Origin: Kofleriaceae bacterium
GTDB taxonomy: Bacteria; Myxococcota_A; Polyangia; Haliangiales; Haliangiaceae
DNA length: 64,000 nucleotides
NCBI GenBank assembly: GCA_965215005.1
Contig: CBDCCZ010000023.1
Coordinates: forward strand, 79,325 to 143,324
Reading direction: 5' to 3'
Shown piece by piece: positions 28,101 through 31,882 of this stretch. Each line of letters starts with the position of its first letter. Positions within the stretch are counted from its first letter, which is position 1. The notes below the pieces were generated by a model. The model worked only from the letters and a program-made list of their open reading frames with translations. It was not told the DNA's origin and did no database searches. The position numbers and the translations under genes are program-made.

Positions 28101-29462
28101 ATCAGCGAGCTATTTGCCGCCGAACGCCGCATCCACACCACCATCGGCCTCACCACCGGCGATCTCGAAGAGCGGCGCTGGCTAAGCATCCGCAGCACCA
28201 ACGCCGCAAACACGACAAATGACATTCTCGACGCGGCAAGTGGCGGCGACGGCCCCACCGAATATGCCACCAAGATGGGCGCCGTCGACGCCATCCAAGC
28301 AACCATTCTGGCGTTCGTAGACATGAAACGCACCGCACTCGAAGAGCTCCAGGTAGCGCTAGACGAGCCAGCCCCACCCAAGGAGCGAAACACCCTCGAC
28401 ATCGTGGCCGAGATCTTCGTCAACATACTTCTCTCCGCCACCACCGGCTACCTCGGCGGCCTTATCGGCACCCAGTTGGGCCGCGCCTTCCAAGCCGCCG
28501 GCTCCGTCGCCGCGTTGCCGGTCCGGTACCAGCAAGCCAACGAGCTAATCGCGGCGATGAATCAAGCCGTCAAGCCTCCAGCGACGACCAACGACGCCGT
28601 CAAGAAGGTCTTCCAAGACCTGTACTCGAATAGCGCCAAGGCAGCCCTCAACACCAAAGCCGCAGCGCGAGACGGCGCCGCCAGCGAGACGAACGCTCCC
28701 AACGCCCACGCAATGGGCTTGGTGCGAACGCCGAAGAACGTATTCCTCTCCATTCAGCGGCAGAAGCTCGACCAGATGCATCTCAGCATGCACCTAAGGA
28801 TGCTCGGTCTGCGCGAAACTCTACTCCTTGACCTAGATCTTCAGACCCTCAACGCCATCGTACAGGAGCTAAGTAGTATCAAAGACGACGTTATGGCAGC
28901 GGGGCTAGCAGGCGATGTGGCAACAACGTGGCTCAACTTCAAGGCCCAGCTCGCCCATGGCTCAAAGGACGACCAGAACCCGCAACGAGGCATCAACATC
29001 CCTGAGGGCCTCGCGCCCGGCCACTATCACGGACACGCCCACGGCGTGCTGCTCATCGATTTTGGTTACAGGGACAACCGGCTCATCCCCCGTCGCATGT
29101 CGCTCGGCGGCGCCGAACCGAGCATCCACGAGTACATTCGGAGCCAGGAGTCGGTCGCTAATTTACCCATCAACCGCGTCTACACCGTCGAGGGTCCCGT
29201 AGCCTTGTCGACGTACGAGGGACCGGTGCGAGCTCCGGTGTTGGGCCTACAACGCAAGATCACCATCCTTCAGAGGCCCGACGGCAGTATTACCGTGCAA
29301 TCCAATTCCTCCGGCGATAATCTGCTCGTCGCCATCGGCCTTGGTATCTCTGAGCAGGAGGCGACGCGCTATCGAAACTCGGAGCCCACCGCTCCGCTCG
29401 CGGGCGCGCGAACCATCACGAGCGTCGCCGGCGCGCTTTCTCCAAAGGACATCCAACAGTGA
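25176..29462 (+). CDS. Multidomain putative eCIS-type effector: PG-binding domain, DUF4157, annexin-like repeat and unnamed helical C-terminal domain
   Basis: FQRERGLVVDGIVGPET; GAEAYATGEHIVF...AHEVTHVLQQ...YEREADAVA (DUF4157); LYVAMSGWGTNEDAI (annexin); GGAG RBS. Confidence 0.8.
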   Translation: MKRYRPRGERGETPAAEQRQGVPGKGNRAAELAEMQWRGGGPNPLLPSHLQARGRSGVDWRRWGREASGDAVQQRESADASSSAEVEPLLDARQLTRAQRLNPRGQERRGWQPEQLDAAGLEVASTAFALRIAHFQRERGLVVDGIVGPETLGAAGVAPAAGRAPAGAATTATDAASSTTAPAAASAATPMTPTTAPAATSATTPTTPAAAASTKPANTADDQLWLAVATYELGDTRLGRAHWEAYLQQLGADHWRRVLELDGLGVDGWVERANALEELEGGPPPPVSAAEKARREAASRLELLFTTRDRANKLTHELRGRLTADLRRRVLGPDTKMIRAGLYLGMQSAAVSTGVEEVLAAADETVGAVCALLAEVYALHCKSAELEQLRAQTVHSLEILRAHGLTGQLPGAFPRQRSGPTPELGDRPGDANVRPNRRAPSRSSELGDQAGDAIIIHEGPAAERIDVAALGLDPSAPESYDTYRARGLAAYGAGNDELAAAYGLLMDRAAARERGESARAPVQRRSNAIAAEDVQAAAAEGIATPAQSLPHLERLQPAFQGHDLTTIAAHVGSDAARSANAMGAEAYATGEHIVFANTPDLETTAHEVTHVLQQRQGVQLRSGIGQVGDPYEREADAVAANIVQGRSAALTASAPSAVPGTIQRRSWEMDIKTDLYVAMSGWGTNEDAIYRRLSHATLPELRQVLADSKLMAELRSTLSASELPRVLDLLNAPLAGGSDEQNALSESATTASSVQRKQATTGHASVTAAQTLLRAAARDAGDGLADPDISSALHAALRLHQAAEAVALLPHDVVSRLYVIADLAISRATWLEAHWRVHQPSAAKDLQAAIHAISGALEPSGWKPSNIAPDKEPRSLRGRGGEKSVFKRDDSVLRTSFAAVRETLHAPASATKTHLGSLAAQAIPHLRTVLETLQLPEYAAPARRVAWTAELQRTTAAIDAYAQLLRASNHGRNDAISELFAAERRIHTTIGLTTGDLEERRWLSIRSTNAANTTNDILDAASGGDGPTEYATKMGAVDAIQATILAFVDMKRTALEELQVALDEPAPPKERNTLDIVAEIFVNILLSATTGYLGGLIGTQLGRAFQAAGSVAALPVRYQQANELIAAMNQAVKPPATTNDAVKKVFQDLYSNSAKAALNTKAAARDGAASETNAPNAHAMGLVRTPKNVFLSIQRQKLDQMHLSMHLRMLGLRETLLLDLDLQTLNAIVQELSSIKDDVMAAGLAGDVATTWLNFKAQLAHGSKDDQNPQRGINIPEGLAPGHYHGHAHGVLLIDFGYRDNRLIPRRMSLGGAEPSIHEYIRSQESVANLPINRVYTVEGPVALSTYEGPVRAPVLGLQRKITILQRPDGSITVQSNSSGDNLLVAIGLGISEQEATRYRNSEPTAPLAGARTITSVAGALSPKDIQQ

Positions 29463-30034
29463 CCCATGTCTGGCTGGTAGGCTCCGTGCTCCTCTTAGCA
29501 TCGACTAGTTGCAAGAAGGGAGAGGAGCCTTATCGAGCTAATCTCGATAAGGCGTACGGCGAGGGCGTCGTAGGAGTCATGCAGGATATTGAGTGGAAGC
29601 TCGAAAGGCACTGCGGCTTTTTCAGGGTGACCCGCGAACCAATAACCAAAGAGCATATACTCTACCGGGCAAGGCGTCTCCTATGGGAAGGCACGGATGA
29701 GACGATCAACTGCCGTGACACCGTTACGAATGGCATGGTTCAAGTCTCGGCAATGCAGTACGACCGTCGCCCGTACTACTACTGGCGCATCGGACGGGTT
29801 CAAGTTCCGGTGCGTCAATTACTAGAACGGACCTATTACTATCTCGAAGACTCCTTATCACCTCAGGAGCGCAGGGAGTTCCGTCATCGCCTCGATACCC
29901 GCCCGCTCGACAGTCGACGCGAGCTCTGGAGGATCGGCCCCTTAAAGGTCTCACTTACGGCTTCCACCGGACCAGGCGGTGCCTTCGTCACCGTAGAGCG
30001 CAACCTCTTGAAACTCCCGGAATCCAAGAGCTAA
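29459..30034 (+). CDS. Small lipoprotein, candidate immunity protein
   Basis: LLLASTSC lipobox; GTG start overlaps the upstream stop (GTGA). Confidence 0.65.
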   Translation: MTHVWLVGSVLLLASTSCKKGEEPYRANLDKAYGEGVVGVMQDIEWKLERHCGFFRVTREPITKEHILYRARRLLWEGTDETINCRDTVTNGMVQVSAMQYDRRPYYYWRIGRVQVPVRQLLERTYYYLEDSLSPQERREFRHRLDTRPLDSRRELWRIGPLKVSLTASTGPGGAFVTVERNLLKLPESKS

Positions 30035-30058: not shown

Positions 30059-31882
30059 ATGGACCTAACCACCATCCGCGCCCACGTCGGCTCCGATGCC
30101 GCCCGCTCCGCCACCGCCATGGGCGCCGAGGCCTACGCCACCGGCGAGCAGATCGTCTTCGCCAACACGCCCGATCTCGAAACCGCCAGTCACGTCCACG
30201 AGGTCACACACGTCCTCAACGCCATTGAGCTGCCCCGCGTCCTCGCTCTGTTAAACGCCCCGCTCGACAAGCAGGCCGACGAATTAGACAAGCAGAACGA
30301 TCTATCAAACAGCGCGACCGCGGCCAGCAGCGTCCAGCGCAAGCAAGCCACCACCGACGTACAGGCCCCAACTGATCGCCTCTATCCCGTCAAGGAGGAG
30401 CTCGACTTTGGCAACTTTGAACTTGGCCGGGGCGCTCCCTGGCCACAGCTACACGTCGTTATCAAGAACCCTACAGCGCTTCCGCGTGCCTTACGTCTCT
30501 TGCGAGCCTCGCCCCCCGATGCAGGCGTTGCATTCCGCTTCAGCGCGCCCGCGCAGGTCCATCCGCGAGCGTTGGAGCCTGTGAAAATGGAGTTGCTGTT
30601 CACGCCACCGGGACCGGGCCGCTATCAGGGCGTGCTCGACTTCGGCGAATTCCAGTTGGCGCTCAAAGGCAGGTGCCAAGCTGCCGGATGGCGAGAGGCA
30701 GAAGCCAATACAGAAGAGCAGCGCCGTTTGGCCGAGCAGCGGCAAGCGCTGAGTGAGATGGCGGTTCTTCCACCGGAGCAAATGGCTCAGCGGGAACAGG
30801 AAGTCGTCAGAACTCGCTCCGATGGCCGCCAGCTCTCAATCCGCGAGCTCTACAACCAAATCTGGGCGATGTACTCCCATCTCGGCGATGCGCAACAACA
30901 AGGAATCGACGTCCTCGAGGCGCATCTCGCTGCTCATAAAGAGGCCGATCCCATCAATTGGTCCACCGAGCTCTTGGGCCTCGCCATCGACGTAGCAACC
31001 GCAGGCGCGGTCGGCTTCATTGGCTCTATCGTCGCCCGAAGAGTCGAAAAGGTCGCCACCCGCTACGTCAACAAGCGCATTGGCGAGATGACCGGCGATG
31101 CGAGCAAATCGTACAGCGGAAGCGGCGTGAAGCTCCTTGCCGATTCCATCAAGGACGCCACCAAAGCTGCCGTCAAGCGCTATGCGCCGTCCTCGGCCGC
31201 AAGCTACTCAGGCATGCCAGCAACCAGCGCATTCTGCCTCGGCCAAAAGCGAACCATCGGCAAAGCCATCATGGACGCCGAGAGCGTCCATATCGCTTCC
31301 ATGGACGAAATGCTCAGCCTCCCCGACGCCCCTGAACAGCTCGCCGCCCTCTACGATGCTCTCGTAGCCGCCCGCGACGAAGCCGAGGGCATCCAATACG
31401 CCGAATCCCTCCGCCAATGGAGCTACAAGCTCGCAGGCCTCACCGCCAAAGGCACCGCTCCAGAGGGACGGGTGGGCGAGAACCTAGATCTACAAAAGGG
31501 CGCGATCGAAATCACCGTCTCGCTCGCAGACCCCCTCGCCTCCCCAGAGATCGTTCAAGCGCGGTGGCCCGGTATCCCCGCAGCGTCCATCCAATCTCTC
31601 CGAATGAGCCACGGAGACCGCCCACTCATGGAGCTACACCCCGCGCTGCGCTTGAACGCAATCCTGCCTCTAGCAAGACGCAAAGAGCCTATCACGCTAA
31701 TCCGATATGGTGCTGGCATGGTGCGCGACGTGCCTAAGAGTGACTTCGCTGCCATGCAATTCCTCGCCTCGAGAGGAGAAGCGATTGCAGGTCCACGCGC
31801 GCCGGAGATTGCTGCCGAGACGGGCGCAAACGATCTGCTGATAAACGTTCTACTCCGGAGGCTAAACGAGGTGTTCCAATAA
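30059..31882 (+). CDS. Second effector cassette: truncated DUF4157, ASH/Ig-like domain and helical C-terminal domain related to that of 25176..29462
   Basis: The first ~300 bp copy two segments of the first effector; LDFGNFELG...IKNPT...FTPPGPGRYQGVL...LKG (ASH-like). Confidence 0.75.
   Translation: MDLTTIRAHVGSDAARSATAMGAEAYATGEQIVFANTPDLETASHVHEVTHVLNAIELPRVLALLNAPLDKQADELDKQNDLSNSATAASSVQRKQATTDVQAPTDRLYPVKEELDFGNFELGRGAPWPQLHVVIKNPTALPRALRLLRASPPDAGVAFRFSAPAQVHPRALEPVKMELLFTPPGPGRYQGVLDFGEFQLALKGRCQAAGWREAEANTEEQRRLAEQRQALSEMAVLPPEQMAQREQEVVRTRSDGRQLSIRELYNQIWAMYSHLGDAQQQGIDVLEAHLAAHKEADPINWSTELLGLAIDVATAGAVGFIGSIVARRVEKVATRYVNKRIGEMTGDASKSYSGSGVKLLADSIKDATKAAVKRYAPSSAASYSGMPATSAFCLGQKRTIGKAIMDAESVHIASMDEMLSLPDAPEQLAALYDALVAARDEAEGIQYAESLRQWSYKLAGLTAKGTAPEGRVGENLDLQKGAIEITVSLADPLASPEIVQARWPGIPAASIQSLRMSHGDRPLMELHPALRLNAILPLARRKEPITLIRYGAGMVRDVPKSDFAAMQFLASRGEAIAGPRAPEIAAETGANDLLINVLLRRLNEVFQ

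Follow-up and report, generated by a model that had tools for sequence, protein, structure and literature searches.

In this study, we have compared the C-terminal domains of two neighbouring open reading frames from a myxobacterium, and their sequence profiles identify them as homologous, a relationship that can be detected only through their relatives. Both belong to a family of effector domains for which membrane attack is the most likely mechanism and which may act by forming pores. The window, a stretch of 64,000 nt, comes from a Kofleriaceae bacterium (Haliangiales; Haliangiaceae; assembly GCA_965215005.1, contig CBDCCZ010000023.1, positions 79,325-143,324, forward strand), and the features discussed here are the following.

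25176..29462, + strand: ORF1, full-length polymorphic effector of 1428 aa (ORF listing, domain search), with a polar N-terminus, PG_binding_1 (aa 131-154), eCIS_core/DUF4157 with HEVTH (aa 554-617), a weak annexin-like repeat (aa 675-705), a unique middle and C-terminal domain 1
26835..27026, + strand: eCIS_core (PF13699) in ORF1 (E 8e-13, 48.8 bits, cut-off 22)
28260..29459, + strand: C-terminal domain 1 (CT1), last 400 aa of ORF1; predicted helical bundle plus alpha/beta subdomain
28413..28481, + strand: Gly-rich stretch of CT1, hydrophobic and free of charged residues (aa 52-74); predicted to form a membrane-inserting helix
29459..30034, + strand: lipoprotein gene 1, encoding 191 aa with a signal peptide and a lipobox (Cys18); candidate immunity protein
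30059..31882, + strand: ORF2, 607 aa, orphan cassette starting within eCIS_core
30062..30356, + strand: two repeats from the N-terminal region of ORF1, abutting each other (DNA comparison)
30830..31879, + strand: C-terminal domain 2 (CT2), last 350 aa of ORF2 (AlphaFold model)
30971..31036, + strand: hydrophobic stretch of CT2 (aa 48-69), single Asp at 54 (hydropathy, alignment)
31882..32466, + strand: lipoprotein gene 2, 194 aa, lipobox Cys19; candidate immunity protein
32517..33680, + strand: 97.8% copy of 21904-23067, an internal part of the putative lipoprotein gene (885 aa) that lies upstream of ORF1
33686..33982, + strand: orphan fragment of a third, unrelated C-terminal domain (82% identical at the aa level to the C10 paralog's end)
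34079..34971, + strand: homolog of the next gene of the C10 paralog, split over two reading frames

Results

Homology of the two C-terminal domains

A sequence-only reading of this DNA had proposed that 28260-29459 and 30830-31879 encode a common, unnamed domain with colinear motifs. The two intervals are indeed the C-termini of ORF1 and ORF2, and the quoted motifs are present. In pairwise comparison the kinship did not emerge: BLASTP of CT1 against CT2 gave no significant match (best E 2.3), and neither the Smith-Waterman alignment (z 2.6, equalled by 21 of 1000 shuffles) nor the global alignment (z 2.5, equalled by 12 of 1000) was significant. Profile comparison, on the other hand, recovered it, since profile A1, made from relatives of CT1 only, matched CT2 (95.6%, E 1.2e-8) and also matched profile A2 (99.3%, E 4.6e-20, 334 columns). 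A profile of 141 family domains without the window proteins, themselves first collected with a profile containing both window domains, scored 145.7 bits with CT1 and 145.1 with CT2, against 6.4 for the best of 40 shuffles. The pairing of CT1 and CT2 in this profile covers 312 columns, 41 of them identical (about 13% identity). There, five of the proposed anchors are in register (the hydrophobic segment, NVFLSIQ/SAFCLGQ, GVLLIDF/GAIEITV, ITILQRPDGSI/ITLIRYGAGMV and GARTI/GANDL), as is the conserved Trp (W224 of CT1, W197 of CT2), whereas VKKVFQD/VKLLADS is displaced by about one helical turn. The domain is a divergent effector domain common to both proteins, with the same predicted architecture; it has no fit in Pfam, NCBIfam, PHROGs or PDB, and no match to a known non-toxic domain was found.

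A polymorphic locus in a genome with eCIS genes

ORF1 shares 91% DNA identity with a paralog on contig C10, the C10 paralog, over 2286 nt (the first 735 aa), after which the C-termini are unrelated. A fragment of this paralog's C-terminus and its downstream gene reappear as an orphan at the ORF1/ORF2 locus (33686-34971), the downstream gene matching at 37% over aa 1-83 (frame 2) and at 46% over aa 73-206 (frame 1). The shared N-terminus with exchanged C-termini and the orphan cassettes mark this, as read from the sequence, as a polymorphic-toxin locus. The earlier count of two effectors holds for ORF1, which is full length, but not for ORF2, a 5'-truncated and internally deleted orphan cassette. 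ORF2 has no N-terminal leader; its partial eCIS_core (aa 2-53, profile positions 17-73 of 79, E 2.9e-8) is followed by a jump of about 300 nt with respect to ORF1, then by 157 aa of unique sequence and finally by CT2. The first of its two repeats (30062-30224) corresponds to 26862-27022 at 85% and is 91.6% identical to the C10 paralog, while the second (30214-30356) corresponds to 27326-27459 at 83%; both are likely recombination handles. Lipoprotein gene 1, for which a Pfam search returned no family, overlaps the ORF1 stop by 4 nt, and lipoprotein gene 2, with no relatives in the 146 other genomes of the order, overlaps the ORF2 stop by 1 nt.

An eCIS locus with Pvc16_N, two sheaths, two tubes, GPD, two base_V and gp25 lies on a different contig (C40) of the same genome; no TssC/VipB was found in that genome. 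Sheath genes occur in 129 of 147 genomes of the order (77 of the 81 with the domain and 52 of the 66 without it) and are so nearly universal that the co-occurrence of domain and eCIS says little. At the level of sequence, the features of a DUF4157/eCIS polymorphic toxin are present: an N-terminal DUF4157 with HExxH, exchangeable C-termini and eCIS genes in the genome.

Predicted fold and hydrophobic helix

The AlphaFold models of CT1 (pLDDT 79.4, pTM 0.76) and CT2 (pLDDT 86.9, pTM 0.86) both consist of a long helical bundle and an alpha/beta subdomain, and long amphipathic helices make up more than half of the domain. In CT2 the helices span residues 4-34, 46-88, 98-118, 131-162 and 167-201, and the subdomain 226-348. 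The hydrophobic hairpin described in the sequence-only reading is not confirmed. Each domain has a single hydrophobic stretch, about 19 residues long (Kyte-Doolittle 1.52 in CT1, 1.87 in CT2), after one or two amphipathic turns; it is modelled in CT2 within a single continuous helix (46-88) and in CT1 as a helix (56-79) that comes after, and partly overlaps, a low-confidence stretch (42-61). Across the family, a 19-residue window reaches a hydropathy of at least 1.6 in this segment in 94 of 146 members, while the remainder of the domain has such a window in 4 of 150, although the stretch is marginal, with a median uncharged run of 19 residues (10th-90th percentile 11-28) and 52 of 146 members below 1.6. 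In the models, a conserved Gly/Ala-rich hydrophobic helix is predicted within a soluble helical bundle, as in alpha pore-forming toxins.

Comparison with the colicin, ClyA and Tc folds, which had been suggested, gave no significant match for either model with Foldseek or VIA, and Foldseek returned no pore-forming toxin at E <=0.001; these searches were filled by the bundle and hardly probed the alpha/beta subdomain. The best VIA matches are generic bundles. The first 200 residues have their best structural neighbour in apolipophorin III (CT2 model, Z 8.9, rmsd 5.8, 160 aligned; CT1, Z 6.9-7.4), a bundle of five amphipathic helices that opens on lipid; this is an analogy rather than homology, at 6-10% identity and with a Z within the tool's common range for helical bundles. 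The domain resembles the ClyA superfamily (HBL-B, YaxB, AhlC, MakB) in its long antiparallel bundle and Gly/Ala-rich hydrophobic element. HBL-B, YaxB and MakB reach Z 5.3-5.7 in VIA (rmsd 10.6-12, 179-192 aligned), with ClyA-type entries in the lower part of the best 50 VIA rows, and AhlC ranks second in Foldseek at E 0.77, all of these values being at background level. Unlike that superfamily, the CT family has an additional alpha/beta subdomain of 150 aa; a multi-component operon was not seen, and Pfam, NCBIfam and PDB gave no ClyA profile match. Colicins A and Ia are likewise modular proteins whose toxin end is a helical domain containing a hydrophobic element. Colicins, however, have a buried two-helix hydrophobic hairpin near the C-terminus, whereas the CT family has a single helix near the domain N-terminus and no two consecutive hydrophobic helices; 1col scored E 1.2 and TM 0.11 in Foldseek and is absent among the best 50 VIA rows. 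As for Tc toxins, neither ORF1 nor ORF2 has a Pfam match to them, and no Tc chain is among the fold-search matches listed.

Family distribution and downstream partners

The family comprises 790 clusters at 50% identity and is present in 81 of 147 genomes of the order, where a genome can carry several divergent copies. In all 148 family proteins the domain stops no more than 20 aa short of the protein C-terminus, and it sits behind DUF4157/eCIS_core (eCIS_core in 46 of 148) or a polar leader; none of the 124 complete proteins has a hydrophobic signal-like N-terminus. Since 35 of these 124 have only a short leader without HExxH (3 of 25 inspected begin within the domain), the domain can be the sole folded part. 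Conservation is highest in columns of G, W, P, G, A, F, G, L and Q; among charged columns it is highest in a Lys (71%). Among 150 aligned sequences there is no invariant His, Cys, Ser, Asp, Glu, Lys or Arg, and hence no invariant catalytic residue; profile searches matched the domain to no enzyme family.

In 25 of 36 distinct loci, which are kin rather than independent, the next gene encodes a lipoprotein or a protein anchored in the membrane, whereas the figure for control ORFs is 17%. By a heuristic lipobox test, 21 of the 36 are lipoprotein-like and 4 more signal- or TM-bearing (controls 97/1762 and 196/1762), two of these 'lipoproteins' resembling two-TM proteins and one being an AhpC-like gene 85 nt away. 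The partner starts -20 to +10 nt from the domain-gene stop in 23 of the 25 cases, and the partners are mostly exported and mutually unrelated. When one partner family was searched in reverse, both new members lay directly behind the domain, and a third member has a locus tag adjoining that of a domain gene. At the other 11 loci the next gene lacks a signal, and in five cases its product belongs to a set of related cytoplasmic helical proteins, four of them with TPR matches.

Discussion

The exchange of C-termini behind DUF4157, the tightly coupled lipoprotein genes and the eCIS locus together strengthen the reading as a toxin. The pore-forming toxin first proposed from sequence thereby gains evidence as a toxin, with membrane attack its most likely mechanism, and pore formation is what we infer beyond this. 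We regard it as somewhat probable that the domain is an antibacterial eCIS effector inserting into the inner membrane from the periplasm. ORF1, likely the expressed toxin, would be loaded into the eCIS tube through its polar N-terminal leader and injected into a Gram-negative rival, where the toxin would refold in the periplasm. The conserved hydrophobic helix is predicted to enter the inner membrane from the periplasmic side while the bundle opens on the membrane; the chains would then oligomerise into a pore, a step proposed because one helix per chain cannot form a channel alone, and the inner membrane would likely be depolarised. The downstream lipoprotein would neutralise the toxin by binding, and those behind CT1 and CT2 likely protect the producer and its kin. 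ORF2, because it has no leader, is read as a likely spare toxin-immunity cassette, which recombination via the short repeats could place behind a full N-terminus.

Lipoprotein partners would suit any periplasmic toxin, including an antibacterial one that makes no pores, its helix serving as an anchor while the alpha/beta subdomain blocks an envelope machine or lipid carrier, or is an enzyme with an unusual active site. This subdomain, hardly probed by the fold searches, is highly conserved (G224 98%, G248 88%), and two conserved Gln (75% and 85%) are, together with a Trp (94%), possible residues of a binding site. We nevertheless find such a toxin rather unlikely, given the lack of invariant polar or charged residues of the catalytic kind among the 150 aligned sequences, the lack of enzyme family matches and the preponderance of long amphipathic helices.

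Two further readings appear less probable still. Pfam SseC matches two of 82 members weakly (18.1 and 16.3 bits) across the hydrophobic segment and the helix after it, and TPR proteins stand behind one group of loci. The TPR fold is that of type III translocator chaperones. A hydrophobic type III translocator of the SseC/YopB kind or a membrane anchor, aiding other cargo in crossing the target membrane or tethering the particle and with chaperones for neighbours, is however improbable: the scores to the SseC/YopB/IpaB family (PF04888) fall far below the 30.2-bit cut-off and ORF1 and ORF2 are unmatched, the domain fills the slot held by a different C-terminus in the C10 paralog, and one genome may contain several divergent copies of it, as well as an orphan cassette. 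As most partners are exported and mutually unrelated, immunity fits them better than a cytoplasmic chaperone role. The coupling to a fast-diverging exported partner and the orphan toxin-partner cassettes, marks of inter-bacterial competition, also make it very improbable that the domain is a membrane-damaging toxin against eukaryotic prey or grazers (fungi, protists), with lipoproteins as accessory or display proteins, even though ClyA-type toxins are among the faint structural neighbours and eCIS effectors such as Mif1 are described as hitting eukaryotic membranes (PMC11796346).

For the preferred reading of an inner-membrane-directed antibacterial toxin, a toxin C-terminus behind a DUF4157 N-terminus has precedent (PMC8213781). 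Like the polymorphic eCIS-associated toxins with DUF4157 (EATs; AlgoCIS Cgo1/Cgo2; PMC8213781, PMC11297309, 10.64898/2026.05.27.728243), ORF1 joins a disordered polar N-terminus, DUF4157 with HExxH, a long linker and a variable C-terminal domain, in a genome with eCIS genes; unlike the EATs described there, its C-terminal domain matches no described family and its locus lies apart from the eCIS operon. The validated EATs covered by PMC8213781 have enzymatic activities and mostly no immunity genes, whereas the CT family usually has an exported partner. With the membrane-disrupting T6SS pairs Ssp6/Sip6 and Tme/Tmi the family shares a likely periplasm-side action on the inner membrane and an immunity gene, here a candidate one, overlapping the effector stop, and Tme is reported to require its single predicted hydrophobic segment (10.64898/2026.10.08.757527). 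It differs from them in having no sequence-family match, in the absence of TssC from the Kofleriaceae genome as searched, and in its partners, mostly lipoproteins of many folds where Sip6 and Tmi are TM proteins (PMC6889166, 10.64898/2026.10.08.757527). Immunity proteins are located where the effector acts, an outer-membrane protein intercepting Ssp6, and enzymes such as Tle1 are the better-known targets of lipoprotein immunity (PMC6889166).

More broadly, it is possible, and we suggest it tentatively, that this is an antibacterial pore-forming eCIS effector family with its own fold (a five-helix amphipathic bundle, one inserting helix and an alpha/beta subdomain), a main weapon of Haliangiales-type myxobacteria, countered by periplasmic lipoproteins recruited from a range of unrelated scaffolds (HEAT repeats, FGE-sulfatase, beta-propeller and a new cysteine-containing family). 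DUF4157 occurs in about half of the predicted eCIS toxins, and 983 of 1130 of those with it are reported without an annotated toxin domain (PMC11297309). The CT family names one such missing domain, a common one, with 790 clusters and with members in more than half of the genomes of the order. Candidate immunity genes accompany it, whereas most of the tested eCIS toxins in PMC8213781 have none. If the proposed mechanism is true, the family would represent a new membrane-attacking antibacterial fold, unlike colicins or ClyA, and the eCIS cargo of these myxobacteria would act in the periplasm of other bacteria.

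Two candidate effector genes with related C-terminal domains

The source genome of the window, on contig C23, is 6.2 Mb long and 92.8% complete, and the genes that concern us are the following.

Features of the effector locus
25176-29462, same strand as ORF2: ORF1, 1428 aa; Pfam PG_binding_1, eCIS_core (DUF4157) and a weak annexin match; C-terminal domain CT1 at 28260-29459
29459-30034: small gene for lipoprotein 1, overlapping the ORF1 stop
30059-31882, same strand as ORF1: ORF2, 607 aa; Pfam partial eCIS_core; C-terminal domain CT2 at 30830-31879
31882-32466: small gene for lipoprotein 2, overlapping the ORF2 stop

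Neither C-terminus has a Pfam match. The sequence-only reading had judged them colinear by eye, a claim that fails in direct comparison (BLASTP not significant, best E 2.3; local score equalled by 21 of 1000 shuffles, not significant) but holds once relatives are brought in. A word-index search with CT1 returned only the window's own protein, and among 147 genomes of the order we found 10 relatives of CT1 (in six other genomes) and two of CT2 (in two genomes). Combined into one profile, CT1 and the 10 CT1 relatives matched CT2 by itself at 95.6% (E 1.2e-8); against the CT2 group the same profile reached 99.3% (E 4.6e-20). Furthermore, a profile of 141 library domains, built without either window protein, scored CT1 and CT2 at about 145 bits each, whereas none of 40 shuffles rose above 6.4; it pairs them over 312 columns, 41 of them identical, with all but one of the anchors picked by eye in register. 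A tree of 36 domains (quick search, midpoint root) splits into a clade of 12 that contains CT1 and a group of 24 that contains CT2 (SH-aLRT 99); the pair is therefore not a recent duplication.

A C-terminal domain family without a name

Searched against clusters at 50% identity, a 16-sequence profile had 790 matches at E <=0.001, of which 489 also passed 1e-10; our study set is the best 150 of the clusters listed, two being the window's own. With a 60-sequence profile the domain was present in 81 of the 147 genomes of the order (79 of 145 when the unpublished G036 and G037 are left out), often in 2-6 copies. In a phylum-wide sample, with four candidates scored per genome, it occurred in at least 6 of 401 genomes, three of them outside the class; gp19-type tube genes are present in all three. 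In all 148 proteins the C-terminus lies no more than 20 residues past the end of the domain, and in 46/148 eCIS_core stands upstream. Among the complete proteins (n=124), an HExxH motif lies upstream in 43 and a short leader alone in 35, and a hydrophobic signal-like N-terminus was seen in none. Pfam ASH was found in 3/148 family proteins; by eye, 30359-30680 of ORF2, before CT2, has the look of an ASH/Ig-like beta-sandwich, though without a Pfam call.

The family had been described as unnamed, and Pfam, NCBIfam, PHROGs and PDB sequence searches bear this out. No NCBIfam or PHROGs family was common to more than two of 60 members; the matches in up to two members are cell-wall-lytic or endolysin families, likely hitting the upstream peptidoglycan-binding domains of some members. 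PDB sequence searches with alignments A3 and A9 gave best E-values of 0.26 and 0.5, and the 7whm_A row of these searches (E 0.45) covers the hydrophobic segment. From the 10 rows of a word-index search with A9 we dropped P0155-P0159, five long DUF4157 proteins without the domain, three of them with PT-TG, PI3/4-kinase or deaminase domains. The ESM Atlas gave a top feature score of 0.84 for CT1, a lead only, and no usable match for one relative (Atlas model pTM 0.22). The type of system is already described (PMC8213781, PMC11297309, PMC4436062). Neither the domain family nor its predicted fold or lipoprotein partners turned up in the libraries and literature searched; the eCIStem and predicted-EAT supplements could list members, possibly as DUF4157 proteins without a domain.

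Predicted architecture

With 150-sequence alignments, CT2 was modelled at pLDDT 86.9 and pTM 0.86 and CT1 at 79.4 and 0.76. The two models share one layout, in which long helices make up the first 200-230 residues and an alpha/beta subdomain of about 150 residues follows. Helix 1 is followed by a conserved Pro (91%), an amphipathic stretch and a Gly/Ala-rich hydrophobic stretch. In this last segment a 19-residue hydropathy of at least 1.6 is reached in 94/146 members, as against 4/150 for the rest of the domain, and the median uncharged run is 19. The proposed two-helix hydrophobic hairpin is unsupported for the soluble state, because the CT2 model places the stretch inside one helix (46-88) and the CT1 model is uncertain there (42-61 at pLDDT <50). 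The central glycines of this helix could allow a bend on membrane insertion.

Comparison with colicin, ClyA and Tc folds, which the sequence-only reading had named for such a check, brought up no close relative. Foldseek with the domain models gave no match at E <=0.001 in the PDB and viral libraries. The best VIA matches were apolipophorin III (Z 8.9, rmsd 5.8) and a designed bundle (Z 7.4); the ClyA-type HBL-B, YaxB and MakB came at only Z 5.3-5.7 with rmsd >10, and colicin and Tc chains were absent among the top VIA rows listed. All of these lie within the helical-bundle background, and the whole-domain searches barely covered the alpha/beta part.

Candidate delivery genes and the surrounding locus

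A set of eCIS genes lies on contig C40 of the same genome, in which no TssC/VipB was found. Sheath genes are present in 77 of the 81 domain-bearing genomes (75/79 without G036 and G037) as against 52 of the 66 lacking the domain; as they occur in 129/147 genomes overall (127/145), the co-occurrence is weak evidence. In G089, another genome, one contig carries a domain gene and a sheath gene 4.5 kb apart. Away from the eCIS locus, a lone gene at 54640-55896 (minus strand) encodes two tandem gp19 tail-tube domains, as does a second on contig C4 near 45444-46301.

The locus has the features of a polymorphic-toxin system. Contig C10 carries a 1405-aa ORF1 paralog with 91% identity over 2286 nt, beyond which its C-terminus is unrelated and contains an HExxH motif, presumably that of a metallopeptidase. 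At 33686-34971 lies an orphan that repeats the end of that C-terminus (82% amino-acid identity) and the gene that follows it, the latter split over two frames. The ORF2 reading frame opens within DUF4157 and carries two repeats of the ORF1 N-terminal region, one abutting the other, with about 300 nt skipped; its ATG lies 24 nt past the preceding stop, with no purine-rich ribosome site visible upstream. Cargo loading in AlgoCIS is the job of a disordered N-terminal domain (10.64898/2026.05.27.728243), so that, by analogy, ORF2 probably serves as a spare cassette and not as a second effector fit for delivery. The ORF2 deletion is unlikely to be an artefact of assembly, as one contig from a public run, which may be the source sample, spans the joint unchanged. 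One DNA run and no RNA run were listed with the locus.

In the one public run that contains the locus, contig depth is 6.9-8.8 over 23017-30127 (upstream genes, ORF1, lipoprotein 1), 2.9-4.3 in the flanks and 3.6 over ORF2; contig depth is not copy number, and this unit may exist in two copies, one of them collapsed. Upstream of ORF1, 21581-24238 encodes an 885-aa putative lipoprotein, Cys-rich near its end and with no Pfam match, of which 1164 nt are repeated at 97.8% between orphan cassettes (32517-33680). The kinase N-terminal half at 18454-19047 and the PEGA-bearing ORF at 19144-20067 (plus strand) appear to be two parts of a single Ser/Thr kinase gene. A second effector island, L047 (G000:C10:86853-101899), holds the ORF1 paralog with its other C-terminus and two related downstream genes and, further on, an 855-aa DUF4157 protein and three tandem similar lipoprotein-like genes of 405-410 aa. 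The genome has nine eCIS_core matches in all, including those in open frames on C18, C49, C37, C25 and C60 (3184, 1744 (two), 216 and 225 aa).

Downstream partners

We compared the gene after the domain at 36 distinct loci (duplicates merged, L060 excluded) with 1762 control ORFs of the source genome. It is lipoprotein-like at 21 loci (control 97), carries a signal or TM segment at 4 (control 196) and shows neither at 11 (control 1469), by a heuristic of our own, with loci that are kin and a control set that contains spurious ORFs. Among the partners, which are mostly unrelated to one another, are four HEAT-repeat proteins, four TPR proteins that lack a signal, an FGE-sulfatase domain and a beta-propeller. 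FGE-like proteins can serve as periplasmic immunity proteins. A separate search with one partner family yielded six matches, the four founders and two new ones, both directly behind the domain. We found no family placement for lipoproteins 1 and 2; to the eye lipoprotein 1 seems colinear with the partner family found in its clade, a kinship that hhalign (0.2-1.5%) and an HMM search (E 0.88) did not support and that we do not claim. L005:2628-3176 and 21 relatives (alignment A15) form a lipoprotein family without a name, marked by conserved cysteines and a C-x-x-x-x-GP motif and located directly behind the domain wherever context is readable. At L020, L062, L063, L064 and L072, related cytoplasmic TPR-like proteins take the lipoprotein's place and could be chaperones or cytoplasmic immunity proteins.

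Proposed mode of action

Several activities may be considered for the domain. A periplasmic toxin that forms no pore would also act where lipoprotein partners reside, and we regard it as unlikely, at about one chance in four; no column is invariant, the most conserved being G224 (98%), W197 (94%), P41 (91%), G248 (88%), A206 (87%), F135 and G208 (86% each), Q189 and L312 (85% each), and the best charged column, K108, reaches 71%, which argues against an ordinary enzyme. A translocator or anchor seems improbable; SseC matches occur in 2/82 members, at 16-18 bits and under the cut-off of 30.2. A toxin against eukaryotes is more doubtful still; Mif1 is an eCIS membrane disruptor of animals (PMC11796346).

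We slightly favour an eCIS-delivered toxin that would insert into the inner membrane from the periplasmic side and oligomerise, with a membrane-tethered partner. Immunity proteins reside at the site of action of their toxin, and the role proposed for Sip6 is to trap the pore-former Ssp6 at the outer membrane (PMC6889166); Tme requires one hydrophobic segment and is active only from the periplasm (10.64898/2026.10.08.757527). In our model, the effector would be threaded into the eCIS tube and set free in the periplasm of a Gram-negative neighbour, where the amphipathic bundle would open, the hydrophobic helix would enter the inner membrane and the chains would oligomerise. In kin, the membrane-tethered periplasmic partner would intercept the effector first.
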